Shown: one piece after another, positions 17,715 to 37,734 of the stretch
How positions within the stretch are numbered: the stretch's first letter is position 1
Layout: each line of letters opens with the position of its first letter
From: Callorhinchus milii
Taxonomy: Eukaryota
Direction of reading: 5' to 3'
Assembly: GCF_018977255.1 (NCBI RefSeq)
Contig: NW_024704801.1
Coordinates: forward strand, 211,856 to 250,000
DNA length: 38,145 bases
Program-made: the position numbers and the translations under genes
The notes under the pieces: model-generated
Told to the model about the DNA's origin: nothing
The model's input: the letters and a program-made list of their open reading frames with translations, nothing else
Databases searched by the model: none

Positions 17715-17794
17715 ATGAGGAGCTTAAAGTATTATAAATCAGAAATTATTATCACAGTTGCTCTATGTGTTATTGGACTTTCATCGGGAGCCAG
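17715..17794 (+). CDS. ZAN: ZAN-like exon 1, signal peptide
   Basis: [26 protein letters not shown], donor CCAG|gtaagt, phase 2. Confidence 0.85.
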
Positions 17795-20700
17795 GTAAGT
17801 GTACTCCTGCATTGAATTTTTTTTATCGTTGTTTGTGAGAGCTGTAGATTTATATGAAATTTGGTCTGATTTTAATAATAATAATAATAATAATAATCCT
17901 TGCAATTGAGACATCTCAAAGCGATTCACAGAGTAAAGCGAATCGACTGTACATTTTTGTGGGCGAAGCACAGCAGCCAATTGCGCACAGCAGTGTCCCA
18001 CAAACAGTCGTGGATTGAGTGACCAAATTATTATTTTATTTATTTTTTGGAGGGATTATTACCCCCGGAAAAGCGATCGGGGTCCTACTTACTGCTCGGT
18101 GAGCAGAGGAGTGTGGAGTCAGGAACTTTCCTAAAGTTTCACCCTACCTGGTAATCGAACCCATATCCTTCGCTTGCGAGGCGAGTGCTCTAACAAATAA
18201 GCTACAGGAATCCACACTGGGCTTGTAAATACATATCGGTGCAGTTTTATTGAAGTCAAATTGGAATATGCCCTTCAATGATTAATTTGGAGATAAAGAT
18301 TCTGAATCCAGTCTGTAAAATAAATAGCAAAATTCTCTGTTAAATGGCCACAGACTGTCTTTGAGATTAATTGAATGAATAATAATAATAATACTTGCGT
18401 TAACTCGGTTGTTGAAGGTATATTTTGTGTACTATTGTAAGTGCCATATTAAATGTAACAATTATTATTAATGATCACGTCAAATAGTTTGTCATAAAAT
18501 TTTAAGGCAGTTGAAATCATAAGATTTGCTGCTAATAACTAGATGTATTTCTTTTTGTTGGATGACTTGGTTATATAATGCACTCTTTCCCACAAAGAGT
18601 ACAGTTAATTCATTTTACAGTATATTCTGTGAAGCGCTTTAAGACGTCTCGAAGATGTGATAAGGTGCTATGTCAAATACAAGGACTATTATTATTATTG
18701 CCCGACAACACTACTATGTAAAACGCTAATAGTGTGGGCTACATAAAACACTGAAGCTTAGGATAAAAACACTTGCAATTCTTTGGAGGTGATAAGGGTA
18801 TTAGTAAGCTCACCTCGTCGGGCCAGTGAAGAACCCACGTTTACCAGAATCAAAGTTTGTCTGTAGGTCCAACAAAGCAGTTTAATCACATATTGACAAG
18901 TGTCTGAATATCATGATTCATACATTTGATATAGTGCCTCATCACATCATTGACACGGCTCAAAGCGCTTCACAGAATATGTGTTGGTCGATTCGCTTTC
19001 CAGGATAATAATTCCTTCATATAAAAAAAATTTGGTCACTCAATCTAAGACTGTTTGTGGGACAGTGCTGTGCACAATTGGATGCCGCATTTCGTCCACA
19101 AAATATAGTCAATTCACATTACAATATATTCTGTGAAGCACTTTGAGGAGTCTCGAGGTTATTATTATTTTTACTTACCTTAAGGGATTATAGATAATCA
19201 CTGTTGTTTTCTCCACAGACCAAGAAAACCACCAGACAGAAATTCACATGGGAAAGTAAACGTTTCAGAGCTCTCCAGTACTAACTCAGGTCAGTACAGT
19301 ACAGGCTTGGAAATATAGAGGAGCGATCAGATAAACTGGGCATGTTCAAGCTGAAGAGAAGTGGTGATATGATTACGGTCTTTAAGATTCTGAAGGGACG
19401 ATAATGTAGACCTTGATAAGCTGTTTTATCGTGTACTGAACAGTAGAACCTGAGGACATGGGTTGCAATTGAAGGGGGGGTAAATACAGAACAAATCTGC
19501 GGGAACACTACTTCTGTGAGTGAGTAGTAAGAGTGTGGAACAGGTTCCCGGGTGGAAGCAGGAAGTGTTGTTTGTTTCAAGAACAAATGAGATAGATTTC
19601 TGCTAGAAAATAATACCCGGGGGAGACAGTATTATAGTTTGGGACACAACATGTCAAGTGACTGCCAGGATGGTGGAAGGCGAACTAGATGGAACTTTTA
19701 GTCTTCTTCGCCTAGCAAATTCTTATATTCTTATATGACCGAAGGTCCTAAGGGAAATATTTCAACATGGAGGGGAGCATTGAGAGTTTTGGGAAGGGCT
19801 GGGTGGTGCATATTAGACTCTGGACTTACACCCAACCTTGGATGAATGCTCCATCTTTGTGATATCTGTTAAAGGTCACAACCTGATCTCCACCACATAA
19901 CCAAATTGCCCACAGCTTTACTACAGCCAATCTGACTCATCAGTAGAGTAGCGTAGACAGGGAGAAACTGTTTCCTCTGCGGGTGGGTCGGTAACCAGAG
20001 GACACAGATTTAAGATAATTGGCAAAAAAATCAGAGAGGAGTCAATGAGACATTTTTTTACCCAGAGAGTTGTTAGCTCTTTCAAAGGGCCAGCACAGGC
20101 ACGATGGGCCGAATGGCCTCCTCCTGTGCAGTAAGATTCTATGATTCTATGATTAACCCAGAATTTCAATCCTGAAATACTTTTGCCTTGATTCTGTAAT
20201 GACTTGATAAACGGTAAACTTGCAGCCCAATTGCAAACCGATCCCAATACATAACTTGTTTTAGTTTCTGCCGTACGTGTTGGTATATTGAACCACTCCT
20301 ATAGTTAATGGCGGGTAAAATTCAGAACAAATCTATTCACCCAGCAAATTTTTATGTTCTTATCTTATAGATATTCTAACGTTCTGTGATTTCAATGACA
20401 ATTCAAAGCCACTCTGTGAGTGGTCTCAAGCAACGAATGATCAAGGAGATTGGAAACGAATTTCTGGCTCAACCCCAACTGAAATCACAGGTCCTGAGGG
20501 AGATTATCCAGATGGAAGTAAGTGACTAACGCTAATTGAGAAGATATTCTGAATATAATCCTAACAACCCAGTGATTCATTTGATTTTATGAGTCCTGTA
20601 AGATAGTGGTTAGAGCACTCGCCAAGCAAGCCAGAGGACTTGGGTTCAATTGCCGGGCGGATCAACGTGAAACCTTAGGCAAATTTCCTTATTCCACACA

Positions 20701-23700
20701 CAAGCCTCTGTTTACCTAGCGGTAAGTAGGAACCCAGGTGTTCGTCGATTGGCGGATCGCTTTTCCAGAACTAATAATCCCTTCAAAAAAAAAAAAAATT
20801 TGGTCACTCAACCCCGACTGTTTGTGGGACACTGCTGCCGCGTTTTGCCCACAAAATATAGTCGATTCACTTCACAGTGTATTCTGTGAAGCGCTTTGAG
20901 ACATCTTGAATATGCGATAAGGCGCTGTGTCAAATGTAAGGATTATTATTATTATTGATGATGAGCAGAAAAGAAGTGAAATGATCCAATAAATGAACGG
21001 TTGGAGTGAGTGACCAGACATCATTGTGTTTGAATTGCAGCTGGTTATTATATCTACCAAGAGGCTGATGATTTCACTGACGGCCAGGCTGCCAAGCTGA
21101 ACAGCCCATCTGTGACAGTATCGGGAGATGTGTGTGTACAGTTCCGATATTTCATGTATGGAATTGATTCAACCAATGCTCTGAATGTCTACGTGGAAAC
21201 GTCGACCATCGAGAAGAAATGGAGTTCAAAAGGAATACAGAGTAATGTTTGGTTACTTGGAACAATCGATCTCAACTACATGACGTCAACTAGTATAAAA
21301 GTAAGGCAGTTTGAATTAACTATTTCTTAGTTGCTTTATTTTTTTTATACCACCATTGGCGGTCAGGCCTTCAGCCTCTCTGCCCCCCACCTTTTGGAAC
21401 TCAATCCCACAGTCCTTTCGCCTCACTCCCCCTCTTGCCTCCTTCAAGGCACATCTCAAGACCCTCCTCTTCGGTCGTGCCTTCCACCACTCTCCTACCC
21501 CTACCCTCCCTGCACTCTACCCTTCTTGATTCAACCCCCCACTCGGGTCCAAATCTCTGACTGTCCAGCGTCTTGGGACAAAATGAAAGATGCTGCGTAA
21601 ATGTCATTTGTCGCTGTTACTACTTTGTGTGAACTGCCTTACTTGTGTGTAACACTCTGCCTAATACAACAGGTGATTTTTGAATCTGTTCGAGGGGCCA
21701 CGAATTCAGCTGACAGTGCTTTGGACAATATTTTGATCCGGAGAGGAACCTGCTCCGGTAAGTTTTGTTTCTGGAACTGGCTTGAGTTGCTGATTCTTAT
21801 CGTGTTATTTAAGAATTGGGATGTTGGAATGAGGAAAGGGCACTCAGCTCACCAGCACGTAGATTCTGACCAGACCAGTTTTCATGCTTCCCTTAACCTG
21901 AACCCATATCCGCTTGTGAGGTACTTGCGTGGAGTCCTGTCGTGTAGTGGTTAGAGCACTCACCTCGCAAGCAAGAGGAGCTGGGTTCGATTCCCGGGTG
22001 GGTCAGGGCAAAACCTTAGGCAAGTTTCCTTACTGCACACACACGCGCGCCTGATCACCTAGCAGTAAGTAGGAACCCGCTTGTTAGTCAATTGGCGGAT
22101 CGCTTTTCCAGCGGAAATAATTCCTTCAAAAAACATAATAATTTGGTCACTCAATCTATGACTCTCATTGACGGCAAAATAGCATGTGTGGAGTACATGT
22201 TTTTCTTCCAACAGGTTGCATCCACAGCTGTGGGTTTGATGAAATGGACAATCTGTGTGGCTGGACTAATGAGGGTTTGGCATTGTGGGAACAATGGTCA
22301 GGGGAGACTGAGACTGACGGCACTGGGCCAGATGATGACCACTCTAAACCAGGCCGTAAGTACCATTTATTCCACTCCATCTTCTCCTCTTTCGTTTGTC
22401 TTCGAGTCTTGTAACTTATTGGTTAGAGCGCTCATCTCGCAAGTGAGAGGACCTGGGTTTGATTCCCGGGTGGGTTGGGGTGAAACTTTCAGCAAGTTTC
22501 CTTACTCCACGCACACGCCTGTTTCCCAGCAGTAAGTAGGAACTTGCTTATTAGTTGATTGGCAGATTGCTTTCCGGGGATAATAATCCTTTAAAAAAAT
22601 TATAATAATTTGATCACACAATCCACGATTGTTTGTGGGACACTGCTGGGCACAATTGGCTGCCACTTTTCACCCACAAAATATACAGTCGCATTTTACA
22701 GTCTACCTGTGAAGCGTCAATTCAGTTTACAGCATATTCTGTGAAGCGCTTTGAGACGTCTGGAAGACGTGAAAAGCGCTATATCAAATCCAAGGATTAT
22801 TATTATTATTATGAAGTGCTTTGCGATGTCTCTGGGATACTATCCCACATGAAGGGTGCTATATAAATGCAAGTTGTTGCTGCTGCGTCGTCTCAAAGAC
22901 GTGATAAGGCGCTATATCAAATGCAAGGATTATTATTATTCAGTACTTTACATTTGATTCTATTTTATTGCCTGTTTCTTGCAGTTGGTAAATATTTGTT
23001 GCTGGACTCCGCCTGGACGAATCCCGGGGACATCAGCCTACTAAAGAGTACAACCTTCACTTCAAGCGAGTGCCTGACATTGTCATTCTATTACTACATG
23101 TTTGGCACTGCTACTCAAATGAAGCTGAATGTGTATGCACAGAAACAAGGCAAGTACGGAGTGGAGGACAGTTGTATGTACATGTCCTCAGTTTGTAACA
23201 GCTCAGCCGAAGGATGGCAACTCCAGCACTACATTGTGGAGCCCTGCAGCTTAGTGTCTTGGGACGTCCTCCTGACATAAAAGGCGCTATGCAAATGTAA
23301 TCTTGTTGTTGTTGCAGTGGTTAGAGCACTCACCTCGCAATCGAGAAGACCTGGGTTCGATTCCCGGGAGGGGCGAAATGTTACACAAGTTTCCTTACTC
23401 CCCGCACACGCCTATTTTTACCTAGCAGTAAGTAGGAACCCAGTTGTTTGGCGGGTCACTTTTCTGGGGGGAATAATCCCTCCAAAAAATTGTAAAAATA
23501 CATGTTAAAAAATAATAATAAGTTAGTCTCCCAATCCACGGCTGTTTGTGGGACACTGCTGGGTGCAATTGGCAGCCACGTTTTGCCCACAAAATATATA
23601 CAGTCAATTCACTTTACAGTATATTCTGTAGCGCTTTGAGGTGTCTTGAAGATGTGCTAAGGCCCTGTATCAAATGCAAGGATTATGATTATCATTATTT

Positions 23701-26700
23701 CCACCAATAGGAGACGGTCTGGGCCAACCCTTGTTCAGCCTGGTTGGAGACCAGAAGCAAGGCTGGAAGAAGGCAGAAGCCATCTATAGAGGAAACGCAG
23801 ATATTCAGGTAGGCTGAAGTTCAGCTACATGTTTCTGATTAAAGGTCTGGTCAAGGGGAAGAGGTGCTTTCTTACGGGATGAGCAGGAGCCTTCAAGATC
23901 AGTACCTCTGTTAGTTGGCGCTTTGCAAATGTAATTTTGTATTTATTAGTTCACGGCAAAATTACAGCAACTGCTGACTGGAAAGCAATGACTTGGACTT
24001 CAAGGATCCTCTGGCACCTAAAATCTGGTGGTCGGCACATGGTTTCATCCCCACTATTGATAGACACGACTTCACTGGATATATTTTGTCCGTTTCCCGG
24101 TTGTGTTATTTGTGGAGTCCTGCAGCTTAGTGGTTAGAGCGCTCGCCTTACAATCCAGATGACTGGGTTTGATTCACGGGCAGGGCGAAACTTTGGGCAA
24201 GTTTCCTTGGGGGTAACAGGACTTTGTGGGACCCTTGTACATACATCTAAAGCACCTGAATCCCTTGTTTACATTCCAGCCTGTAATTCAATCATATTAT
24301 TCTAAATATAACTTTACATTGTATCCTGTGAAGCGCTTTGAGATGTCTCAAAGACATGAAAAGCGCTATACCAAATGCAAGGATTATTATTATTATTAGC
24401 GGAAAGTTGACCACCTTTACTGCTAACCGTCTGTTTCAAAGAGTTTCAGTGATTTTGAAATGATCCGCTATTTTCCAGTTCATAATTGAAGGTATCCGAG
24501 GTGAGACCCCAAAATCAGACATCGCCTTGGACAGTTTCTGTGTGGAAAAGTGCCAACCAGGTAAGATATTCCTCTCTATCAAGCGTCAGACTGCCTTTTA
24601 GATATGATCCTAATTTAAGTGTGTTATTTACAAATAACTGGGATTATGCTGCAAAACACGTGGATTATGTACACTATAATACTGCAAAGGCTGATAAGGG
24701 TCATGTGTAATAGAGCATGATCCCAGTTATTAATATTAACTCACTCCCAGCGATCCGTTATTCTATAAATAATCTCTAACCCTAAATTAAATTCCGGCCT
24801 GTTCGATTGGTAGTCTATAATTCACTCCGAGGAATGTTATTTTACAATAAAATATTGTTGTTACGATGCAGGATCCACAAGCACCACAACATCACCACCA
24901 ACTGGACCGACCACCACCAAAAATCCAGGTAGGAGCAACGATTGGATACTTAATTATATTCCAAGATGAGGTTATGTGACATTCTTCTGCACATGTAAAC
25001 CACCTGAATCCCTCAATTACACTCCAGTTTGTAACTCACTGTCAGGGAACTATTAATCTATATATGTAATCCCTAATAATGACATTCTGTCCGGTTGAGA
25101 GGTCTGTAATTCACTCCTAGGAATTGACATGTTATTTTATAATATTGTCTTTACGATGCAGGATCCACAAGCACCACAACATCACCAACAACTGGACCGA
25201 CCACCACCAAAAAACCAGGTCAGAGCAACGATTTGATACTTAATTATATCCCAGGATGAGGTTACGTGACATTCTTCTGTGCATCGAAACCGCCTGAATC
25301 CCCTGCCTCTCCCTTCAGGCCGCCCAAACCCTCATCCGCGCATTTGTTACATCTAGGCTCGACTATGCCAACTCCTTGCTTTGCGGCCTTCCCAACTCCT
25401 CCCTCCACAAGTCGCAGAAGATCCAGAACTCTGCAGCTCGTGTCCTCTCCTGCATCAGGCTCCGTGACCGCACCCTCACCAAACTCCAGCGGCTCCCCTT
25501 TCCTCAGAGGATAGAGTTCCCTGCCCGGCTCACCCCACTATCGGCGGTCAGGCCTTCAGCCTCTCTGCCCCCACCCCTTGTCATTTCATCCCACAGTCCC
25601 TTCACCTTGCTCTCTCTCTTGCCTCCTTCAAGGCACATCTGAAGACCGTCCTTTTCGTCCGTGCCTTCGGCCACCCTCCTTAGCCCTGCCCTCCACCCCT
25701 CCTGATCCCAACCCCCAGCTCGGGTCAAATCCCTCACTGTCCAGCAACTTGGGACATCCTCCTGACGTGAAAGGCCCTGTGTAAATGTAATTTGTTGTTG
25801 TTGTTGAATCCCTTGCTTACATTCCAGCCTGTAATATTGTCTTTACGATGCAGGAGTCACAACCACCACAAAATCACCACCAACTGGGCCGACCACCACC
25901 AAAAAACCAGGTAAGAGCAACGATTTGATACTTAATTATATCCCAGGATGAGGTTACGTGACATTCTTCTGTGCATCGAAACCGCCTGAATCCCTCAATC
26001 ACACTCCAGTTTGTAACTCACTGCTAGGGATCTGTTATTCTACACACATACCCATGTAACCAACTTGATAACGATTAGCCTATAAACCGTTTCAAGCACC
26101 AGTTGCTGAATATTGACTCATACATTCACTAAGACACTGCGTCTTTCTTTATTCGTGGAGTCCTGTTGTATAGTGGTTAGAGCACTCGCTTCGTAGCACA
26201 ACCGAGGACTAGGGTTCAATTCCTGGCCAGAGCAAAACATTGGGTAAGTTTTCTTACTCCACAAACCTGTTTACGTAGCAGTAATTCGGAACCCAGTTGT
26301 GAGTTGATTGGCAGATCACTTTTTTGGGGCATAATAACCCCTCCCCCAAAAAATAAAACAATAACTTGGTCACTCAATCCACAAATGTTTGTAGGACACT
26401 GCTGTGTGCAATTGGCTGCTGCGTTTTGCCCACAAAATAAGAGTTAATTCATTTTACAGTATATCCTCTGAAGCACTTAAGACACGTGTCGAAGACGTGA
26501 TAAGGCGCTGTATTTAATGCAACGATTATATATTATTGTAATTTCCTTTGTTGTGTGTTTCAGATTCCTGCCCACCCAATTCTCACTACGACCCCTGTGG
26601 TCCCACCTGTCCTCCCACCTGTGATAACCCAAAACCGAATTGTACAGCAAGTTGCGTGGCCGGCTGTTTCTGTGACCCTGGCTTCTTCCAAAATGGACAA

Positions 26701-29700
26701 GCATGTGTTCCTCAGGAGCAATGTGGTTGTAACTACGGAGGCAATTATTATGAGGTGAGGATGTCATCAGACCATTGATAAAAACTGTCTCCTATATCTG
26801 AATATCCAGCTGGAAAGAAGAATTTTTCTCCATCAACTTTCTCCCCTCCTCTCCTCATTGTGGAGTCCTGTCGTTCAGTGGTTAGAGCACTCGCCTCGCA
26901 AGTGAGAGGACCCAGGTTTGATTCCTGGGCGGGTCAGGTTAGGGCGAAACCTTAGGCAAGTTTCCTTACTCCACACACATCCCTCTGCTTACCTAGCAGT
27001 AAGTAGGAACCCAGTTGGTAGTTGATTGGCGGATTGCTTTTCGGGGGCAATAATCCCTAAAAAAAAATGATAATTTGGTCACTCAATCCATGACTGTTTG
27101 TAGAACACAGTTGTGTGCAATTGGCTGCCGCGTTTTGCCCACAAAATATACAGTCAATTCACTTTCCAGTATATACTGTATATAATGTGAAGCGCTTTGA
27201 GATATCCCGAAAACGTGATAAGGCTCTATACCAAATGCAAGGATTATTATCATTATTTCAGGCTCAGGCAATGTAATTTGTATGCCACTAATTGTAGGAA
27301 GTTATTCTTATTTGTTTTCCTGCTTCTAGCCTGGAGAAGTCATCTGGTCAGATGCCTGTACGTCTGTTTGCCATTGTCTTGGAAACTTCAGCATTCGCTG
27401 CACCAACACGAGCTGCGCCCCAGATGAATACTGTGGAGACAAAGATGGAGTCTATGGATGTCACCTCAAAGGTACAGTGAGATTTTGCTATTTCCTTCTT
27501 GGTGTTAAGTACTGAAATACATTACATCCCCGTCTCACTGGACTCCAGATATCTGGAAATAAAGAACATCCAGTTTGACTTCCACCATCCTGGCAGTTGT
27601 TTGACTGTTGTGTCCCAAACTATATACTATATCCTGAGATATTATTTATGGTACTTAGCCAGACATATTGGCAAAACATCCAATGTGTATGTTTCATTTC
27701 GATCCTGTTTCTTTCCTTTGTTATTGAGGACGTAACAAGAAGTGAAAAGCTAAACAGTGTGAACTTCCCCGTTACCTCCTCAGGGTCATCCACATGTACA
27801 GCATCTGGGGATCCCCACTACACCTCCTTTGATAAGAAGAAGTTTAATTTCCATGGAAACTGTACGTACGTCATGTCCCAGACCTGCAACTCCACGCAAA
27901 CTCCATTCTCTGTGTACGCATCCAATGAGCACAGGAACGGGAAAAAAACTGTGTCGTACGTGAAAGCCGTCTATGTGCAGGTGTACGGGATCACAGTGTC
28001 CATACTCAAGAAGAAAGTTGTCCAGGTGAGAAAAAGCTCCTCATCCACTACGATACCTGATCTCAGCTACTGACAGCACAACACAACACAGTATTTCAAT
28101 GCCCGACATTCAGTAGTCCGAGTGACTTTGAGAAACATTCCAACTGTCGTGCCCACCATCTGTTCATACGAATAATTTAAATGGAAACCGACTCTGTGTT
28201 AAACAGCACTGAGACTATTTACTGCAGCAACAATACTGACTGCCTTTGTTAATCAATGTTTGATTTCAGGTGAACGGAAAAACTGTGACTGTCCCAATCA
28301 ACCCGGTCCGTGAGGTCACCATCAAACCATCTGGCAAACATGTCGTCGTACAGACTGACTTTGGTCTGATCGTTAGATACGATGGCAAACATCATATGGA
28401 CATCAAGGTTCCCAGCAAGTAAGTCACTTCAGGACTCTTTGCTAATAACAATGACACTCTGAAGTTGCATATGCTTTCTGTTCTGTGCATATTTCACGTC
28501 TGTATGAATCACAGCTAAAGGCGTTATGTTATCTCTGTGCAGCTACGCTGACGAGCTGTGTGGCCTGTGCGGTGACTACAATGGAAGCCCCAGTGATGAC
28601 TTCAGGACTCCTGAGGGAAAGCTGGTGAAGGGCGTCAATGACTTTGGGAACAGCTGGAACGTGGACGACAAGTAAGTTTAAAAGCTTTGAAGACGATACT
28701 GGTTTCTTTGGTCTGTGAAGTACATGAATAAGTTGGTTAATATGTTCAGTTAAAGAATGTCTTGTCCCTCTGGACAACATCAAGCAGGATTGGCTAAAGA
28801 GATGAACATACAACCTTCTGTGTTGGCTAATGTTGGCTTAAAATGTTTGCCTTACTACCCAGCTGCACCAAGACTGACAGTGATGTGGACCCAGAGTGTA
28901 CTGAGGAAGAGACAGACAAATATGAAGGACCTGCCTACTGTGGGATATTGGTGGATCCATTCGGCCCCTTCGCTGCCTGTCACTACAAAATTGACCCCAT
29001 GGTATGTCCACTTCCTTATCTTAGCTCCTTTTCTTTCATTGCTTCATTTCCTCCCGTTCACCTCACCACCCAAACTTGTCACATAAAGAGCTTGTGATTA
29101 TCACCAAGAGACTCATGTGTCTTCACTATGAGAAGCATCAACATCTGAAGCTCCAATCTATTTTCTTCCAACAGTCCTTCTTCAACGACTGTGTGTACGA
29201 CATGTGTGAGCTGGACGGCAGTAAGACGGAGCTGTGCGACGCTTTGGAGGCCTATGTCAATGAGTGTCAGCAACGCAACATCACCATCGATTCCTGGAGA
29301 AACAGCACCTTCTGCCGTACGTACCAATGAGAGTGATTATCAGTGTAAACGCCAAATCAATTTTAAAACAGCGATTCTTCACATGCTTCTCTGTGCCTGT
29401 TCTCTCCAGCTCTCACATGCCCACCTAACAGCCACTACGAACCCTGTACGTCAGCCTGTCCAGCCACCTGCCTTAACCCTACACCTCCTTCCTGCGACCT
29501 CCCCTGTGTGGAAGGCTGTCAGTGCGATAAAGGATTTGTACTGAGCGGAGACCAGTGTGTGCCCAAAAAACAATGTGGCTGTTTTTACAACGGAACCGAA
29601 TATCAGGTAATGTCACAAGGAATTCTTGCAAATCTGAGCAGTCAAATTCAGGCATTAAGCACTAGACATTGCATCGGTTTTGTTGCAGGTTTTTGCATTT

Positions 29701-32700
29701 AGTTTTTTCTTTCCAGTCATTGTAGTCACTCTCCCTCAATCCCTCCGCTTTGCCTTCTCCTTCCCCATCTTCACATCGCTCCAGAAGACATTCCTCTTCG
29801 ACCGTGCCTACAGTCACCTCCCCCCAGTTCGGCATCGTGCTCCGCCACTGTCAAGCGCTCTGGGACGCTACCCTGCATGAGGGGTGCTATATAAATGCAA
29901 GTTGGTGGTGGTGGTGTAATTCTGATTGATTTCTCCGTTTGCAGCCAGGTGAGGTGATCTGGTCTAAGGCCTGTGACCAAGTGTGTAAGTGTCAGTCGAG
30001 CAATAACATTGAGTGCAAAGATACAAGCTGTGATCCGGACGAGTACTGCGGCAGTGAAGGTGGTGTTCAGGGCTGTTACCCTAAAGGTAAACGGGGCCAA
30101 CACTTTAACCGTCATTAACTTCCTTTCCAATGTTCCATCATTTCATTCCTGCTTCTTTCCTTTGCAATTGGGAGAGAAATCACCAAGAAATGTAAAGCTA
30201 AACAGTGTGAACTTCACCCTCAGGTTCATCCACATGTACAGCATCTGGAGATCCCCACTACACCTCCTTTGACAAGAAGAAGTTTAATTTCCATGGAAAC
30301 TGTACGTACGTCATGTCCCAGACCTGCAACTCCACACAAACCCCATTCGCTGTGTACGCATCCAACGAGCACAGGAATAAGAAAAAGACTGTGACGTACG
30401 TGAAAGCCGTCTATGTGGAGGTGTACGGCATCACAGTGTCCATACTCAAGAAGAAGGTTGTCCAGGTGAGACAAGAGCTCCTCATCCACAATACCTAATC
30501 TCAGCTACTGACAGCAGTTACACAACACCTACAGTAGTCCAATACCCCACATTCAGTATTCCGAGTGACTTTGAGAAAGATTACAACTGTCCTGTCCTCT
30601 AACTGTTCATACGATTAATTCAAATAGGAAACCAACTCTGTGTTAAACAGCATTGAGGCTATTTACTGCAGCAACGGCAGCAATAATATTGATTACCTGT
30701 GTTAATCAATGTTTTGATTTCAGGTGAACGGAAAAACTGTGACTGTCCCAATCAACCCAGTCCGTGAGGTCACCATCAAACCATCCGGCAAACATGTCGT
30801 CGTACAGACTGACTTTGGTCTGATCGTTAGATACGATGGCAATCATCACATGGACATCAAGGTTCCCAGCGAGTAAGTCACTACAGGACTCGTTGCTAAT
30901 AACAATGACACTCTGAAGTTGCATCTGCTTTCTGTTCTGTGCATATTTCTCGTCTGTATGAATCACAGCTAAAGGCGTTATGTTATCTCTGTGCAGCTAC
31001 GCTGACGAGCTGTGTGGCCTGTGCGGTGACTACAATGGAAGCCCCAGTGATGACTTCAGGACTCGTGAGGGAAAGCTGGTGAAGGGCGTCAATGACTTTG
31101 GGAACAGCTGGAACGTGGACGACAAGTAAGTTTAAAAGCTTTGAAGACGATACTGGTTTCTTTGGTCTGTGAAGTACACGAATATGTTGGTTAATATGTT
31201 CAGTTAAAGAATGTCTTGTCCCTCTGGACAACATCAAGCAGGATTGGCGAAAGAGATGAACGTACAACCTTCTGTGTGTTGGCTAATGTTGGCTTAAAAT
31301 GTTTGCCTTACTACCCAGCTGCACCAAGACTGACAGTGATGTGGACCCAGAGTGTACTGAGGAAGAGACAGACAAATATGAAGGACCTGCCTACTGTGGG
31401 ATATTGGTGGATCCATTCGGCCCCTTCGCTGCCTGTCACTACAAAATTGACCCCATGGTATGTCCACTTCCTTGTCTTAGCTCCTTTTCTTTCATTGCTT
31501 CATTTCCTCCCGTTCACCTCACCACCCAAACTTGTGACATAAAGGGCTTGTGGTTATCACCAAGAGACTCATGTGTCTTCACTATGAGAAGCATCAACAT
31601 CTGAAGCTCCAATCTATTTTCTTCCAACAGTCCTTCTTCAACGACTGTGTGTACGACATGTGTGAGCTGGACGGCAGTAAGACGGAGCTGTGCGACGCTT
31701 TGGAGGCCTATGTCAATGAGTGTCAGCAACGCAACATCACCATCGATTCCTGGAGAAACAGCACCTTCTGCCGTACGTACCAATGAGAGTGATTATCAGT
31801 GTAAACGCCAAATCAATTTTAAAACAGCGATTCTTCACATGCTTCTCTGTGCCTGTTCTCTCCAGCTCTCACATGCCCACCTAACAGCCACTACGAACCC
31901 TGTACGTCAGCCTGTCCAGCCACCTGCCTTAACCCTACACCTCCTTCCTGCGACCTCCCCTGTGTGGAAGGCTGTCAGTGCGATAAAGGATTTGTACTGA
32001 GCGGAGACCAGTGTGTGCCCAAAAAACAATGTGGCTGTTTTTACAACGGAACCGAATATCAGGTAATGTCACAAGGAATTCTTGCAAATCTGAGCAGTCA
32101 AATTCAGGCATTAAGCGCTGGACATTGCATCGGTTTTGTTGAAGGTTTTTGCATTTAGTTTTTTCTTTCCAGTCATTGTAGTCACTCTCCCTCAATCCCT
32201 CCGCTTTGCCTTCTCCTTCCCCATCTTCACATCGCTCCAGAGGACATTCCTCTTCGACCGTGCCTACAGTCACCTCCCCCCAGTTTGGCATCGTGCTCCG
32301 CCATTGTCAAGCACTCTGGGACGCTACCCTGCATGAGGGGTGCTATATAAATGCAAGTTGTTGGTGGTGGTGTAATTCTGATTGATTTCTCCGTTTGCAG
32401 CCAGGAGAGGTGATCTGGTCTAAGGCCTGTGACCAAGTGTGTAAGTGTCAGTCGAGCAATAACATTGAGTGCAAAGATACAAGCTGTGATCCGGACGAGT
32501 ACTGCGGCAGTGAAGGTGGTGTTCAGGGCTGTTACCCTAAAGGTAAACGGGGCCAACACTTTAACCGTCATTAACTTCCTTTCCAATGTTCCATCATTTC
32601 ATTCCTGCTTCTTTCCTTTGTCATTGGGAGAGAATTCACCAAGAAATGTAAAGCTAAACAGTGTGAACTTCACCCTCAGGTTCATCCACATGTACAGCAT

Positions 32701-35700
32701 CTGGAGATCCCCACTACACCTCCTTTGATAAGAAGAAGTTTAATTTCCATGGAAACTGTACGTACGTCATGTCCCAGACCTGCAACTCCACACAAACCCC
32801 ATTCGCTGTGTACGCATCCAACGAGCACAGGAATAAGAAAAAGACTGTGACGTACGTGAAAGCCGTCTATGTCGAGGTGTACGGCATCACAGTGTCCATA
32901 CTCAAGAAGAAGGTTGTCCAGGTGAGACAAGAGCTCCTCATCCACAATACCTAATCTCAGCTACTGACAGCAGTTACACAACACCTACAGTAGTCCAATA
33001 CCCCACATTCAGTATTCCGAGTGACTTTGAGAAAGATTACAACTGTCCTGCCCTCTAACTGTTCAAACGATTAATTCAAATAGGAAACCAACTCTGTGTT
33101 AAACAGCATTGAGGCTGTTTACTGCAGCAACGGCAGCAATAATATTAATTACCTGTGTTAATCAATGTTTTGATTTCAGGTGAACGGAAAAACTGTGACT
33201 GTCCCAATCAACCCAGTCCGTGAGGTCACCATCAAACCATCCGGCAAACATGTCGTCGTACAGACTGACTTTGGTCTGATCGTTAGATACGATGGCAATC
33301 ATCACATGGACATCAAGGTTCCCAGCGAGTAAGTCACTTCAGGACTCGTTGCTAATAACAATGACACTCTGAAGTTGCATCTGCTTTCTGTTCTGTGCAT
33401 ATTTCACGTCTGTATGAATCACAGCTAAAGGCGTTATGTTATCTCTGTGCAGCTACGCTGACGAGCTGTGTGGCCTGTGCGGTGACTACAATGGAAGCCC
33501 CAGTGATGACTTCAGGACTCGTGAGGGAAAGCTGGTGAAGGGCGTCAATGACTTTGGGAACAGCTGGAACGTGGACGACAAGTAAGTTTAAAAGCTTTGA
33601 AGACGATACTGGTTTCTTTGGTCTGTGAAGTACACGTATAAGTTGGTTAATATGTTCAGTTAAAGAATGTCTTGTCCCTCTGGACAACATCAAGCAGGAT
33701 TGGCGAAAGAGATGAACATACAACCTTCTCTGTGTTGGCTAATGTTGGCTTAAAATGTTTGCCTTACTACCCAGCTGCACCAAGACTGACAGTGATGTGG
33801 ACCCAGAGTGTACTGAGGAAGAGACAGACAAATATGAAGGACCTGCCTACTGTGGGATATTGGTGGATCCATTCGGCCCCTTCGCTGCCTGTCACTACAA
33901 AATTGACCCCATGGTATGTCCACTTCCTTATCTTAGCTCCATTTCTTTCATTGCTTCATTTCCTCCCGTTCACCTCACCGCCCAAACTTGTGACATAAAG
34001 AGCTTGTGATTATCACCAAGAGACTCATGTGTCTTCACTATGAGAAGCATCAACATCTGAAGCTCCAATCTATTTTCTTCCAACAGTCCTTCTTCAACGA
34101 CTGTGTGTACGACATGTGTGAGCTGGACGGCAGTAAGACGGAGCTGTGCGACGCTTTGGAGGCCTATGTCAATGAGTGTCAGCAACGCAACATCACCATC
34201 GATTCCTGGAGAAACAGCACCTTCTGCCGTACGTACCAATGAGAGTGATTATCAGCGTAAACGCCAAATCAATTTTAAAACAGCGATTCTTCACATGCTT
34301 CTCTGTGCCTGTTCTCTCCAGCTCTCACATGCCCACCTAACAGCCACTACGAACCCTGTACGTCAGCCTGTCCAGCCACCTGCCTTAACCCTACACCTCC
34401 TTCCTGCGACCTCCCCTGTGTGGAAGGCTGTCAGTGCGATAAAGGATTTGTACTGAGCGGAGACCAGTGTGTGCCCAAAAAACAATGTGGCTGTTTTTAC
34501 AACGGAACCGAATATCAGGTAATGTCACAAGGAATTCTTGCAAATCTGAGCAGTCAAATTCAGGCATTAAGCGCTGGACATTGCATCGGTTTTGTTGCAG
34601 GTTTTTGCATTTAGTTTTTTCTTTCCAGTCATTGTAGTCACTCTCCCTCAATCCCTCCGCTTTGCCTTCTCCTTCCCCATCTTCACATCGCTCCAGAAGA
34701 CATTCCTCTTCGACCGTGCCTACAGTCACCTCCCCCCAGTTTGGCATCGTGCTCCGCCACTGTCAAGCGCTCTGGGACGCTACCCTGCATGAGGGGTGCT
34801 ATATAAATGCAAGTTGGTGGTGGTGGTGTAATTCTGATTGATTTCTCCGTTTGCAGCCAGGAGAGGTGATCTGGTCTAAGGCCTGTGACCAAGTGTGTAA
34901 GTGTCAGTCGAGCAATAACATTGAGTGCAAAGATACAAGCTGTGATCCGGACGAGTACTGCGGCAGTGAAGGTGGTGTTCAGGGCTGTTACCCTAAAGGT
35001 AAACGGGGCCAACACTTTAACCGTCATTAACTTCCTTTCCAATGTTCCATCATTTCATTCCTGCTTCTTTCCTTTGTCATTGGGAGAGAATTCACCAAGA
35101 AATGTAAAGCTAAACAGTGTGAACTTCACCCTCAGGTTCATCCACATGTACAGCATCTGGAGATCCCCACTACACCTCCTTTGACAAGAAGAAGTTTAAT
35201 TTCCATGGAAACTGTACGTACGTCATGTCCCAGACCTGCAACTCCACACAAACCCCATTCGCTGTGTACGCATCCAACGAGCACAGGAATAAGAAAAAGA
35301 CTGTGACGTACGTGAAAGCCGTCTATGTGGAGGTGTACGGCATCACAGTGTCCATACTCAAGAAGAAGGTTGTCCAGGTGAGACAAGAGCTCCTCATCCA
35401 CAATACCTAATCTCAGCTACTGACAGCAGTTACACAACACCTACAGTATTCCAATACCCCACATTCAGTATTCCGAGTGACTTTGAGAAAGATTACAACT
35501 GTCCTGCCCTCTAACTGTTCATACGATTAATTCAAATAGGAAACCAACTCTGTGTTAAACAGCATTGAGGCTATTTACTGCAGCAACGGCAGCAATAATA
35601 TTGATTACCTGTGTTAATCAATGTTTTGATTTCAGGTGAACGGAAAAACTGTGACTGTCCCAATCAACCCAGTCCGTGAGGTCACCATCAAACCATCCGG

Positions 35701-37597
35701 CAAACATGTCGTCGTACAGACTGACTTTGGTCTGATCGTTAGATACGATGGCAATCATCACATGGACATCAAGGTTCCCAGCGAGTAAGTCACTTCAGGA
35801 CTCGTTGCTAATAACAATGACACTCTGAAGTTGCATCTGCTTTCTGTTCTGTGCATATTTCACGTCTGTATGAATCACAGCTAAAGGCGTTATGTTATCT
35901 CTGTGCAGCTACGCTGACGAGCTGTGTGGCCTGTGCGGTGACTACAATGGAAGCCCCAGTGATGACTTCAGGACTCGTGAGGGAAAGCTGGTGAAGGGCG
36001 TCAATGACTTTGGGAACAGCTGGAACGTGGACGACAAGTAAGTTTAAAAGCTTTGAAGACGATACTGGTTTCTTTGGTCTGTGAAGTACACGAATAAGTT
36101 GGTTAATATGTTCAGTTAAAGAATGTCTTGTCCCTCTGGACAACATCAAGCAGGATTGGCGAAAGAGATGAACATACAACCTTCTCTGTGTTGGCTAATG
36201 TTGGCTTAAAATGTTTGCCTTACTACCCAGCTGCACCAAGACTGACAGTGATGTGGACCCAGAGTGTACTGAGGAAGAGACAGACAAATATGAAGGACCT
36301 GCCTACTGTGGGATATTGGTGGATCCATTCGGCCCCTTCGCTGCCTGTCACTACAAAATTGACCCCACGGTATGTCCACTTCCTTGTCTTAGCTCCTTTT
36401 CTTTCATTCCTTCATTCATTTCCTCCCGTTCACCTCACCGCCCAAACTTGTGACATAAAGAGCTTGTGATTATCACCAAGAGACTCATGTGTCTTCACTA
36501 TGAGAAGCATCAACATCTGAAGCTCCAATCTATTTTCTTCCAACAGTCCTTCTTCAACGACTGTGTGTACGACATGTGTGAGCTGGACGGCAGTAAGACG
36601 GAGCTGTGCGACGCTTTGGAGGCCTATGTCAATGAGTGTCAGCAACGCAACATCACCATCGATTCCTGGAGAAACAGCACCTTCTGCCGTACGTACCAAT
36701 GAGAGTGATTATCAGCGTAAACGCCAAATCAATTTTAAAACAGCGATTCTTCACATGCTTCTCTGTGCCTGTTCTCTCCAGCTCTCACATGCCCACCTAA
36801 CAGCCACTACGAACCCTGTACGTCAGCCTGTCCAGCCACCTGCCTTAACCCTACACCTCCTTCCTGCGACCTCCCCTGTGTGGAAGGCTGTCAGTGCGAT
36901 AAAGGATTTGTACTGAGCGGAGACCAGTGTGTGCCCAAAAAACAATGTGGCTGTTTTTACAACGGAACCGAATATCAGGTAATGTCACAAGGAATTCTTG
37001 CAAATCTGAGAAATTAATTTCAGGCGCCAAGTACATTGTATTTCTGATTGAATTCTCCTTGTTCTAGCCAGGTGAGGTGATCTGGTCTAAGGCCTGTGAC
37101 CAAGTATGTACTTGTCAGTCAAGCAACAACATCAAGTGCAAAGATACAAGCTGTGATCCGGACGAGTACTGTGGCAGTGAAGGTGGTGTTCAGGGCTGTT
37201 ACCCTAAAGGTAAAGAGGGCCAACACTTTAACCGTCATTAACATCCTTTCGAACATTCCATCAAATTCGCTGCTGCTTCTTTCCTTTGTCCCTGGGAGAG
37301 AATTCAACAAGAAGACAAACGCTAAACAGTGTGAACTTCCCCGTTACCTCCTTAGGTTCATCCACATGTACTGCATCTGGAGATCCCCACTACACCTCCT
37401 TTGACAAGAAGAAGTTTAATTTCCATGGAAACTGTACGTACGTCATGTCCCAGACCTGCAACTCCACACAGACCCCATTCGCTGTGTACGCATCCAACGA
37501 GCATAGGAACGGGAAAAAAACTGTGTCGTATGTGAAAGCCGTCTATGTGCAGGTGTACGGGATCACCGTGTCCATACTCAAGAAGAAAGTTGTCCAG
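17715..37597 (+). CDS. ZAN: Zonadhesin-like gene, 43 exons in window, 3'-incomplete (SP-MAM-MAM-mucin-TIL-[VWD-C8-TIL-VWC-like]x4-VWD...)
   Basis: All exon junctions are phase-compatible, 6435 nt = 2145 codons, no stops seen. N-terminus RPRKPPDRN...[19 protein letters not shown] parallels mammalian ZAN (RKEKPPDQK...LTQCDFEDDAKPLCDWSQ, from memory). MAM-mucin-D domain order is diagnostic. Confidence 0.9.
17875..18213 (-). mobile_element. tRNA-SINE in ZAN-like intron 1
   Basis: Same family, reverse orientation. Confidence 0.88.
19219..19289 (+). CDS. ZAN: ZAN-like exon 2
   Basis: ctccacag|A CCA AGA... [24 protein letters not shown], donor CAG|gtcagt. Phase 2 to 1 bridges exons 1 and 3. Confidence 0.78.
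19300..20152 (+). mobile_element. Two CR1-like 3' fragments (~19300-19737 and 19955-20152)
   Basis: Degenerate ORF2 end, tails ttcttatattcttatat and attctatgattctatga. Confidence 0.7.
20371..20517 (+). CDS. ZAN: ZAN-like exon 3, MAM1
   Basis: [49 protein letters not shown], canonical ag/gtaagt. Confidence 0.92.
21041..21300 (+). CDS. ZAN: ZAN-like exon 4, MAM1
   Basis: [40 protein letters not shown]...TSIK, donor gtaagg. Confidence 0.92.
21350..21620 (+). mobile_element. L2-clade LINE 3' fragment
   Basis: Collinear with 25535-25800 (ggcggtcaggccttcagcctctctgccccc...). Confidence 0.8.
21673..21757 (+). CDS. ZAN: ZAN-like exon 5, MAM1 end
   Basis: [28 protein letters not shown], donor gtaagt. 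Confidence 0.92.
22215..22355 (+). CDS. ZAN: ZAN-like exon 6, MAM2
   Basis: [47 protein letters not shown], donor gtaagt. Confidence 0.92.
22985..23149 (+). CDS. ZAN: ZAN-like exon 7, MAM2 (GC donor)
   Basis: [22 protein letters not shown]...[12 protein letters not shown]...VYAQKQ, donor AAG|gcaagt gives the required phase 1. Confidence 0.85.
23711..23808 (+). CDS. ZAN: ZAN-like exon 8, MAM2
   Basis: [33 protein letters not shown], donor gtaggc. Confidence 0.88.
24479..24560 (+). CDS. ZAN: ZAN-like exon 9, MAM2 end
   Basis: [27 protein letters not shown] (DIALD MAM motif), donor gtaaga. Confidence 0.92.
24872..24928 (+). CDS. ZAN: ZAN-like exon 10, mucin cassette 1
   Basis: 57 nt, phase 1-1, [19 protein letters not shown]. 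Confidence 0.85.
25162..25218 (+). CDS. ZAN: ZAN-like exon 11, mucin cassette 2
   Basis: 57 nt, phase 1-1, [19 protein letters not shown], weaker donor gtcaga. Confidence 0.8.
25303..25804 (+). mobile_element. L2-clade LINE 3' fragment with 8-bp target-site duplication
   Basis: Encodes [35 protein letters not shown] (L2 ORF2 C-terminus), (TTG)n tail, flanked by TGAATCCC at 25295-25302 and 25805-25812. Confidence 0.88.
25854..25910 (+). CDS. ZAN: ZAN-like exon 12, mucin cassette 3
   Basis: 57 nt, phase 1-1, [19 protein letters not shown], donor gtaaga. Confidence 0.85.
26157..26540 (+). mobile_element. tRNA-SINE
   Basis: Full head-core-tail. Confidence 0.85.
26564..26754 (+). CDS. ZAN: ZAN-like exon 13, TIL domain (partial D0)
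   Basis: [41 protein letters not shown]...[11 protein letters not shown]. Confidence 0.93.
26861..27258 (+). mobile_element. Full-length tRNA-derived SINE (Deu-domain type), reference copy
   Basis: Head GGAGTCCTG..CAGTGGTTAGAGCACTCGCCTCGCAAGTGAGAGGACCCAGGTTTGATTCC with A/B boxes, core TGTGCAATTGGCTGCCGCG, LINE-like tail TGTGAAGCGCTTTGAG...AAATGCAAGG(ATT)n. Confidence 0.9.
27330..27471 (+). CDS. ZAN: ZAN-like exon 14, VWC/TILa-like
   Basis: [47 protein letters not shown]. Confidence 0.92.
27784..28025 (+). CDS. ZAN: ZAN-like exon 15, VWD1 start (GDPH)
   Basis: [35 protein letters not shown]...KKKVVQ. Confidence 0.94.
28270..28418 (+). CDS. ZAN: ZAN-like exon 16, VWD1
   Basis: [49 protein letters not shown]. 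Confidence 0.93.
28543..28671 (+). CDS. ZAN: ZAN-like exon 17, VWD1 end (CGLCG)
   Basis: [42 protein letters not shown]. Confidence 0.94.
28863..29001 (+). CDS. ZAN: ZAN-like exon 18, C8 start
   Basis: [46 protein letters not shown]. Confidence 0.93.
29175..29316 (+). CDS. ZAN: ZAN-like exon 19, C8
   Basis: [47 protein letters not shown]. Confidence 0.93.
29410..29606 (+). CDS. ZAN: ZAN-like exon 20, TIL
   Basis: [66 protein letters not shown]. Confidence 0.93.
29720..29916 (+). mobile_element. L2-like 3' fragment inside the repeat unit (also ~32176-32372 and 34632-34828)
   Basis: cctcttcgaccgtgcc...aagcgctctgggacg...gctatataaatgcaagttg tail. Confidence 0.7.
29945..30086 (+). CDS. ZAN: ZAN-like exon 21, VWC/TILa-like
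   Basis: [47 protein letters not shown]. Confidence 0.93.
30224..32542 (+). CDS. ZAN: ZAN-like D unit 2, exons 22-28
   Basis: Exons 30224-30465, 30724-30872, 30997-31125, 31319-31457, 31631-31772, 31866-32062, 32401-32542. Same lengths and phases as exons 15-21. Confidence 0.92.
32680..34998 (+). CDS. ZAN: ZAN-like D unit 3, exons 29-35
   Basis: Exons 32680-32921, 33180-33328, 33453-33581, 33775-33913, 34087-34228, 34322-34518, 34857-34998. Exactly +2456 from unit 2. Confidence 0.92.
35136..37209 (+). CDS. ZAN: ZAN-like D unit 4, exons 36-42
   Basis: Exons 35136-35377, 35636-35784, 35909-36037, 36231-36369, 36547-36688, 36782-36978, 37068-37209. Confidence 0.92.
37356..37597 (+). CDS. ZAN: ZAN-like exon 43, VWD5 start (GDPH); gene continues beyond the window
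   Basis: cttag|GT TCA TCC ACA TGT... [13 protein letters not shown]...KKKVVQ|gtgaga. Confidence 0.92.
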
Positions 37598-37734
37598 GTG
37601 AGAAAAGAGCGCCCCTCCCTTCCTGTCTGGGAGACGTCTAATGTTCAATGTGACCCACTTTCTGCTGACTGATGAGGAGTGTCGTTAAAGTAAGCTGAGG
37701 GAAATGTGCTGTGTACTTTTATTTCTGTCTGTGA

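Follow-up and report, generated by a model that had tools for sequence, protein, structure and literature searches.

Near-identical D-unit cassettes in a zonadhesin-like gene of Callorhinchus milii form a tandem array that is probably ancient

The stretch of DNA analysed here, called the window throughout, comprises 38,145 nucleotides of the chimaera Callorhinchus milii (NCBI RefSeq assembly GCF_018977255.1, contig NW_024704801.1, positions 211,856 to 250,000 of the forward strand). It carries the 5' portion of a zonadhesin-like gene in which one seven-exon cassette, encoding a complete von Willebrand D assembly, is repeated head to tail. Five copies, U1 to U5, are in view, the last represented by its first exon. 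The evidence favours an array that is probably ancient: the extra first D unit of fish zonadhesin stands here in at least four almost unchanged copies, and the array likely arose before chimaeras and sharks split and has likely been kept uniform by unequal crossing-over or gene conversion together with purifying selection. The cassettes are arranged as follows.

27784..30223, plus strand: cassette U1, exons A to G at 27784-28025, 28270-28418, 28543-28671, 28863-29001, 29175-29316, 29410-29606 and 29945-30086; spliced contigs in sequencing runs X5 and X6
30224..32679, plus strand: cassette U2, 2456 bp; U2-4-type exon A letters in all four runs compared
32680..35135, plus strand: cassette U3, 2456 bp, protein identical to that of U2
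35136..37355, plus strand: cassette U4, 2220 bp; the homogenised part ends where intron F starts, and intron F (89 nt), exon G and intron G are older
37356..37597, plus strand: exon A of U5, the remainder lying beyond the window; three of the four exon-A residue variants of U1 are present, and the following intron diverges

Exon A begins at 27784, 30224, 32680, 35136 and 37356, giving spacings of 2440, 2456, 2456 and 2220 bp. The 2456-bp period proposed in the initial annotation holds for two of these four spacings and fails for the other two. The exon coordinates and Pfam matches do bear out its description of four full cassettes and a partial fifth, each full copy having seven exons, 1140 coding nucleotides and phase 1-to-1 ends. 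In U1 to U4 the exons measure 242, 149, 129, 139, 142, 197 and 142 nt (1140 nt), all have AG/GT boundaries and run from phase 1 to phase 1, and each unit is stop-free with 32 Cys. In Pfam, exons A-C match VWD, exons D-E match C8, exon F matches TIL and exon G matches TILa, so that each cassette holds a VWD-C8-TIL-TILa unit and whole D assemblies are indeed what is repeated. The array is free of N, the 147 N of the window lying near 4540-4690. U5 is likely the last and more diverged unit, since the intron after its exon A diverges and diverged last units are also found in the shark Mustelus and the coelacanth Latimeria.

The array was compared with four of 24 listed public sequencing runs, over 26540-30230 only (U1 and its 5' flank). 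Contig 11 of the DNA-like run X2 links exon G, by way of intron G, to a U2-4-type exon A that has 14 other letters, an unspliced head-to-tail junction. Contig 17 of X5 is spliced through E-F-G and then back to exon A, with introns E and F skipped, and represents a spliced junction. Both U1-type letters, which are located in exon A, intron A and exon B of U1, and U2-4-type letters are present in separate runs. Over the repeat, contig depth reaches ~2.9x (X1) and 3.8x (X2) that of single-copy bins, ratios that are not copy numbers and that derive from four single-copy and 11 repeat bins per run, leaving aside bins dominated by short interspersed nuclear elements and those of exon A and intron A. 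None of the listed runs is recorded as RNA; X5 and X6, which belong to one study with no tissue on record, are RNA by guess only. Support for a multi-copy array is good, although no contig or read in the compared runs spans it whole to show the exact count, and the number of copies may differ between animals, as the initial annotation suggested.

Comparison of the copies upholds the earlier proposal that the units were recently homogenised, as they are near-identical at the DNA level and group with each other in trees. The near-identical tract extends over ~28200-36900, with a best match of 95-100% per 200 nt, and the edges of the array are older, at 85-90% around 27900 and 37200. Among U1-U4, 10 of 379 residues vary, seven private to U1 and three to U4, with U2 and U3 the same; the amino acid differences are few, as first described, but more than the three named at that time. 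The claim that introns are as conserved as exons fares differently. Between U2 and U3 the introns differ at 21 of 1316 positions and the exons at two of 1140, both synonymous (Fisher p = 0.0002). Measured against the introns, synonymous sites (2/236) show no difference (p = 0.56), whereas nonsynonymous sites (0/901) are depleted (p = 2e-5). Introns that resemble synonymous sites, combined with nonsynonymous depletion, point to recently homogenised chimaera copies on which purifying selection acts.

Two further observations concern variation within the array. An abundant interspersed repeat piece lies in intron F of U1-U3 (~29700-29920, 32156-32376 and 34612-34832) and is absent from U4, whose intron F measures 89 nt against 338 nt in the other three; it marks a single insertion or deletion spread by the latest homogenisation. 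At unit position 52 (window ~27939, 30379, 32835, 35291 and 37511) the chimaera has Gly in U1 and U5 and Lys in U2-4, and Mustelus (P0047) has Gly in U1, U8 and U9 and Arg in U2-7, the same arrangement of Gly at the edge and a basic residue inside. Positions 52-57 contain several of the few variable sites in both species.

Upstream of the array, a zonadhesin-like gene with a ZAN-type N-terminus was correctly recognised from the outset: two MAM domains, a Pro/Thr/Ser (PTS) stalk and a D0 module precede the cassettes. A single open frame of 2144 codons runs on the plus strand from the ATG at 17715 to the end of U5 exon A. The 3' part of the gene lies beyond the end of the window, and total copy number and synteny are outside its view. 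The elements that precede the array are listed below.

17715-17794, plus strand: start exon with predicted signal peptide; N-terminus as in C. milii XP_007910285
19219-19289, plus strand: second small exon; N-terminus as in C. milii XP_007910285
20371..21757, plus strand: MAM domain 1, exons 20371-20517, 21041-21300 and 21673-21757; Pfam MAM on all three of three exons
22215..24560, plus strand: MAM domain 2, exons 22215-22355, 22985-23149 (GC donor), 23711-23808 and 24479-24560; Pfam MAM on two of four exons, and frame continuity
24872..25910, plus strand: short mucin-like Pro/Thr/Ser stalk of three 57-nt phase 1-1 exons, recognised from their translations
26564..27471, plus strand: partial D0 module, TIL exon 26564-26754 and TILa exon 27330-27471; Pfam TIL and TILa, with contig 20 of run X6 joining both exons

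Pfam MAM was found on five of the seven N-terminal exons scanned and other families on none, the first two exons and the PTS exons being outside the scan. The middle MAM1 exon is 100% identical to C. milii zonadhesin-like XP_007910285 (P0001). The domain order of MAM, mucin and tandem VWD is that by which Roberts 2022 recognises a zonadhesin, and the gene is filed as ZanL, not as authentic Zan. The open frame requires a GC donor at 23149, which is where the NCBI model XP_007910285 departs from it, and this donor may be behind the piecemeal annotation of the gene. Existing C. milii models are fragmentary, one stopping in MAM2 and two, P0004 and P0005, after exon C of the first unit. The mucin stalk has only three 57-nt exons, in a duplicated intron context, whereas the repeats of the Mustelus stalk amount to ~500 residues; the chimaera stalk may be truly short, or the assembly may have collapsed it. 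The sole gene seen upstream in the window belongs to the TSC22 family (5260-7183, plus strand; exon 6959-7180, Pfam TSC22, E 5e-27), and downstream of that exon lies a 250-bp repeat pair of 78% identity (8347-8594 and 10129-10385). In humans, TSC22D4 lies near ZAN on 7q22.1.

The identity of the repeated unit was examined in a quick tree of 66 VWD-C8 rows, with support from the Shimodaira-Hasegawa-like approximate likelihood ratio test only and with part of the units from six multi-unit proteins. The chimaera units form one group (support 99) that is sister to the Mustelus units (99; joint 93). The next branches are Latimeria and then the first D unit of teleost zonadhesins, and the whole clade, with support of 100, holds the first unit of Limanda, Cirrhinus, Oreochromis, Alosa, Latimeria and Mustelus. 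FCGBP (turtle) and tectorin units fall outside it. The units thus group with each other and not one-to-one with units of other species, as the initial annotation anticipated, and a second tree agrees on their placement. Because the chimaera units sit in the teleost first-unit clade, the repeated unit is, judged by sequence, the extra first D unit with which pufferfish and flatfish zonadhesin come to a total of five. Its identification with one of the mammalian D1-D4 was considered and rejected: D1, D2 and D4 of rabbit and Mastomys grouped with fish units 2, 3 and 5 instead, and their D3 was unplaced on a long branch outside the clade. In the tree, no counterpart of the unit was found in these two mammalian proteins.

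The same unit is repeated in other species. In Mustelus asterias XP_078061500, MAM-MAM-mucin-D0 is followed by ten units at exactly 380-residue spacing and then by D1 and D2; nine of the units differ by 0-9 residues and the tenth by 104-108. Varying residues number 11 of 379 in Mustelus U1-9 and 10 of 379 in the chimaera, against an identity of 67.5% between the units of the two species, so that likeness within a species exceeds that between species, as expected of concerted evolution. One Latimeria model contains a full unit followed by an exon A that is identical at 78 of 81 residues, and another contains a diverged last unit (76%) before D1-D4; Latimeria apparently carries at least three copies. 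The C-terminal D1-D4, EGF and membrane anchor are present in Latimeria P0006. Among the matches listed, proteins of Oreochromis, Osmerus, Alosa, Cirrhinus, Garra and Maylandia have 2-7 near-identical copies, and because their registers differ these teleost repeats look like separate re-expansions. The unit is 67-70% identical across chimaera, shark and coelacanth, compared with 49-60% for MAM (59.6% between MAM1-2 of C. milii XP_007910285 and of Mustelus). All proteins from relatives are automatic models, and some repeats may be assembly errors. Repetition of other kinds was also seen: a paralogous family (P0051, P0048, P0054 and P0207, from Stegostoma, Rhinatrema, Paroedura and Xenopus) has repeated MAM-D-D-D blocks, 95-100% identical within species, and the rabbit zonadhesin models P0063 and P0205 have D1-D3 twice at 94-100% identity, a real duplication or an assembly error.

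The age of the array is best approached through the linker between units, a hybrid whose TIL is like that of the last unit and whose TILa is like that of D0. The linker TILa of chimaera and shark are 81% identical to each other and 60% and 62% identical to their own D0, and that of the coelacanth is 65-69% identical to the chimaera and shark linkers and 54% to its own D0. Approximately unbiased (AU) tests reject a clade of linker and own D0 in chimaera (p = 0.0009), shark (p = 0.003) and coelacanth (p = 0.01), and do not reject a linker clade of all three species (p = 0.25). These tests place the array before the species split, firmly for chimaera and shark and more weakly for the coelacanth, given the small alignment. 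On these sequence comparisons, the most likely date of the duplication is before chimaeras and sharks split, about 420 million years ago, and perhaps before the split from bony vertebrates as well. A recent amplification in the chimaera, as first suggested, is not what the comparison indicates: since Mustelus and Latimeria carry the unit with a similar inter-unit linker, the array is most likely old. The mammalian D0 TILa, compared as a possible remnant of the last array unit, shows 25-44% identity to all others and long branches, and the Oreochromis and Pristiophorus rows in the comparison of D0 and linker are mucin sequence and were disregarded.

Expansion of whole D units is already known from zebrafish zan and human FCGBP and is not a new mechanism. 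Hunt et al. 2005 trace the nine VWD domains of zebrafish zan to 17-exon phase-1 blocks that were duplicated recently and are 85-87% identical, and raise possible assembly collapse or population variation of these blocks (PMC1325057). Zebrafish and pufferfish zan/ZanL share with the chimaera gene two MAM domains, a mucin region, tandem VWD and an extra first D unit, which gives five D in pufferfish (PMC1325057, PMC9275260), as well as full D domains that were recently duplicated in tandem as symmetric blocks of phase-1 exons (PMC1325057). The zebrafish blocks are ~5 kb long and contain two D units, whereas in the chimaera one 7-exon unit is repeated at 95-100% identity. Platypus ZanL has double the full VWD count (PMC9275260). 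Human FCGBP is also a chain of VWD-C8-TIL-E assemblies with GDPH, with three almost identical repeats of three assemblies, but it has its own N-terminal domain in place of a MAM-mucin head, and its repeat consists of three different units (PMC10880436, PMC11796319). The FCGBP N-terminal domain was not found in the chimaera gene, where five of the seven N-terminal exons scanned gave MAM instead, and turtle FCGBP units lie apart from those of the chimaera in the tree. FCGBP is further marked by a disulfide-linked dimer formed through its last VWD, a part for which the chimaera gene lies beyond the window. Mammalian ZAN has the same MAM-mucin-D0-D order, with D1, D2 and D4 grouping with fish units 2, 3 and 5, but it is sperm-specific and, in rabbit and Mastomys, lacks the repeated unit; the muroid expansion involves two-exon partial D3 domains (PMC9275260). 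Mustelus XP_078061500, a database model automatically named 'IgGFc-binding protein-like', matches the chimaera gene in architecture, 380-aa unit, linker type and diverged last copy, and differs in its ten copies' 67.5% identity to the chimaera units and its much longer mucin stalk. No report of an array of this unit in chondrichthyans, or of its shared origin, was found in the literature covered, which held few subscription papers and no supplements; the available portions of PMC1325057 and PMC9275260 do not treat chondrichthyans or a shared ancient array, 'shark' and 'chondrichthyes' having 0 matches in the latter.

These results present a model in which an ancestral tandem duplication would have made the hybrid linker still common to chimaera, shark and coelacanth, after which each lineage would have turned over its inner copies while more diverged edge copies remained. 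Owing to phase 1-1 symmetry, any whole-cassette gain or loss would stay in frame, and unequal crossing-over or conversion would add, remove and homogenise cassettes, with purifying selection as a filter. There is about an even chance that the history reaches further: the jawed-vertebrate zonadhesin ancestor would already have had the array, which would have stayed uniform for more than 400 million years in the chimaera, shark and coelacanth lineages, been re-expanded in teleosts and been deleted in placental mammals at the switch to a sperm protein. Several points weigh against an ancient, exchanging array. Direct sign of exchange between the chimaera copies is thin, as the core has 25 variable sites, 22 private and three shared, of which one (U1+U3) conflicts with two (U1+U2). 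The linker test comprises 47 columns and 12 rows, with groups named after the identity table was seen; the linkers may have converged, and a chondrichthyan-only clade of both D0s and both linkers is not rejected (p = 0.064), which leaves an origin in the jawed-vertebrate ancestor less well supported than one in the common ancestor of chimaeras and sharks. The coelacanth evidence consists of two separate partial models, and one shark model only has the array, that of Pristiophorus having only D1-D4 and those of Rhincodon and Cetorhinus beginning at D1. Repeated independent expansion does happen, as shown by five flatfish proteins with a single first unit and by teleost repeats in other registers (D0+first unit+D1 blocks in Cirrhinus, Garra and Maylandia; other linkers in Alosa). 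The same differences favour a rather unlikely alternative, in which a duplication-prone, phase-symmetric cassette was amplified recently and independently in each lineage and linker likeness reflects convergence or a shared two-unit ancestor not homogenised for long. Such expansion occurs often in the family, where a twin at 95% or more is present in 22 of the 138 representatives that have at least two VWD hits, and the star-like private variants of the core fit a recent burst. Such amplification is difficult to reconcile with the grouping of linker TILa across species and the rejection of an own-D0 origin, with the at least two age layers in the chimaera (edges 85-90%, core 98-100%) and the diverged last units of Mustelus and Latimeria, or with the 380-aa register common to chimaera, shark and coelacanth. 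It is very improbable that the array is an assembly artefact, in which the real cassettes number one or two and were over-expanded, or two haplotypes were placed in tandem. The lack of a spanning contig or read and the stop of both P0004 and P0005 at the same exon mark a region that is hard to assemble, but the copies differ mainly in introns, unlike random error, and comprise three distinct exon A types; the tandem junction and both letter types recur in separate runs with raised depth, and a shark has the same array.

The function of an ancient array has to be considered alongside its origin. The GDPH motif is present in all five copies of exon A, and each unit has seven N-glycosylation sequons and an even 32 Cys. 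The fold is fixed by Pfam and PDB sequence matches, the best PDB match of the unit being FCGBP. Because each unit has an even number of Cys, the repeats are read as a tandem single chain, and the "polymeric" stalk of the initial annotation finds no support. Chimaera, shark and coelacanth units have in common a charge split, with a net charge of +7 to +8 in the first 130 residues and of -14 to -19 in the next 136, which could matter for unit packing. In FCGBP, GDPH is self-cleaved with the first strand disulfide-bound, and cleavage stabilises the D assembly and raises protease resistance (PMC10880436). The predicted product would consist of a signal peptide, two MAM domains, a short mucin, D0 and about five D units of identical type, continuing as in relatives with D1-D4, EGF and a membrane anchor. 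After self-cleavage at GDPH the parts of each unit would remain joined by disulfides, and the resulting protease-resistant, length-adjustable stalk would keep the MAM head at a distance from a mucosal surface, likely that of the gut. By best guess the protein is a glycoprotein of mucosal surfaces that is tethered to the membrane and has a tough stalk whose length can be adjusted; its tissue, cleavage and anchor are inferred. Chimaeras fertilise internally, and the array could be old and real yet serve reproduction, its uniform repeats forming a multivalent recognition surface and not a mucosal spacer. This is improbable, even though mammalian ZAN binds the egg coat through its D domains (PMC9275260) and the few variable residues of chimaera and shark fall in the same short stretch, positions 52-57. 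Zebrafish zan is expressed in gut, not testis (PMC1325057), a gut-mucin role for fish ZanL was proposed by Roberts et al. (PMC9275260), and the slow evolution of the unit relative to MAM and its purifying selection are unlike those of rapidly evolving gamete proteins.

An ancient array may explain why database models are split here or named IgGFc-binding protein-like. It would offer a natural polymer of identical D assemblies, of use in structural studies of GDPH cleavage and unit packing, and a clean multi-exon case of long-lived concerted evolution within one gene. The zonadhesin progenitor would be recast, not as a pufferfish-like five-D protein, but as one with an expandable, self-homogenising stalk that is absent in mammals.

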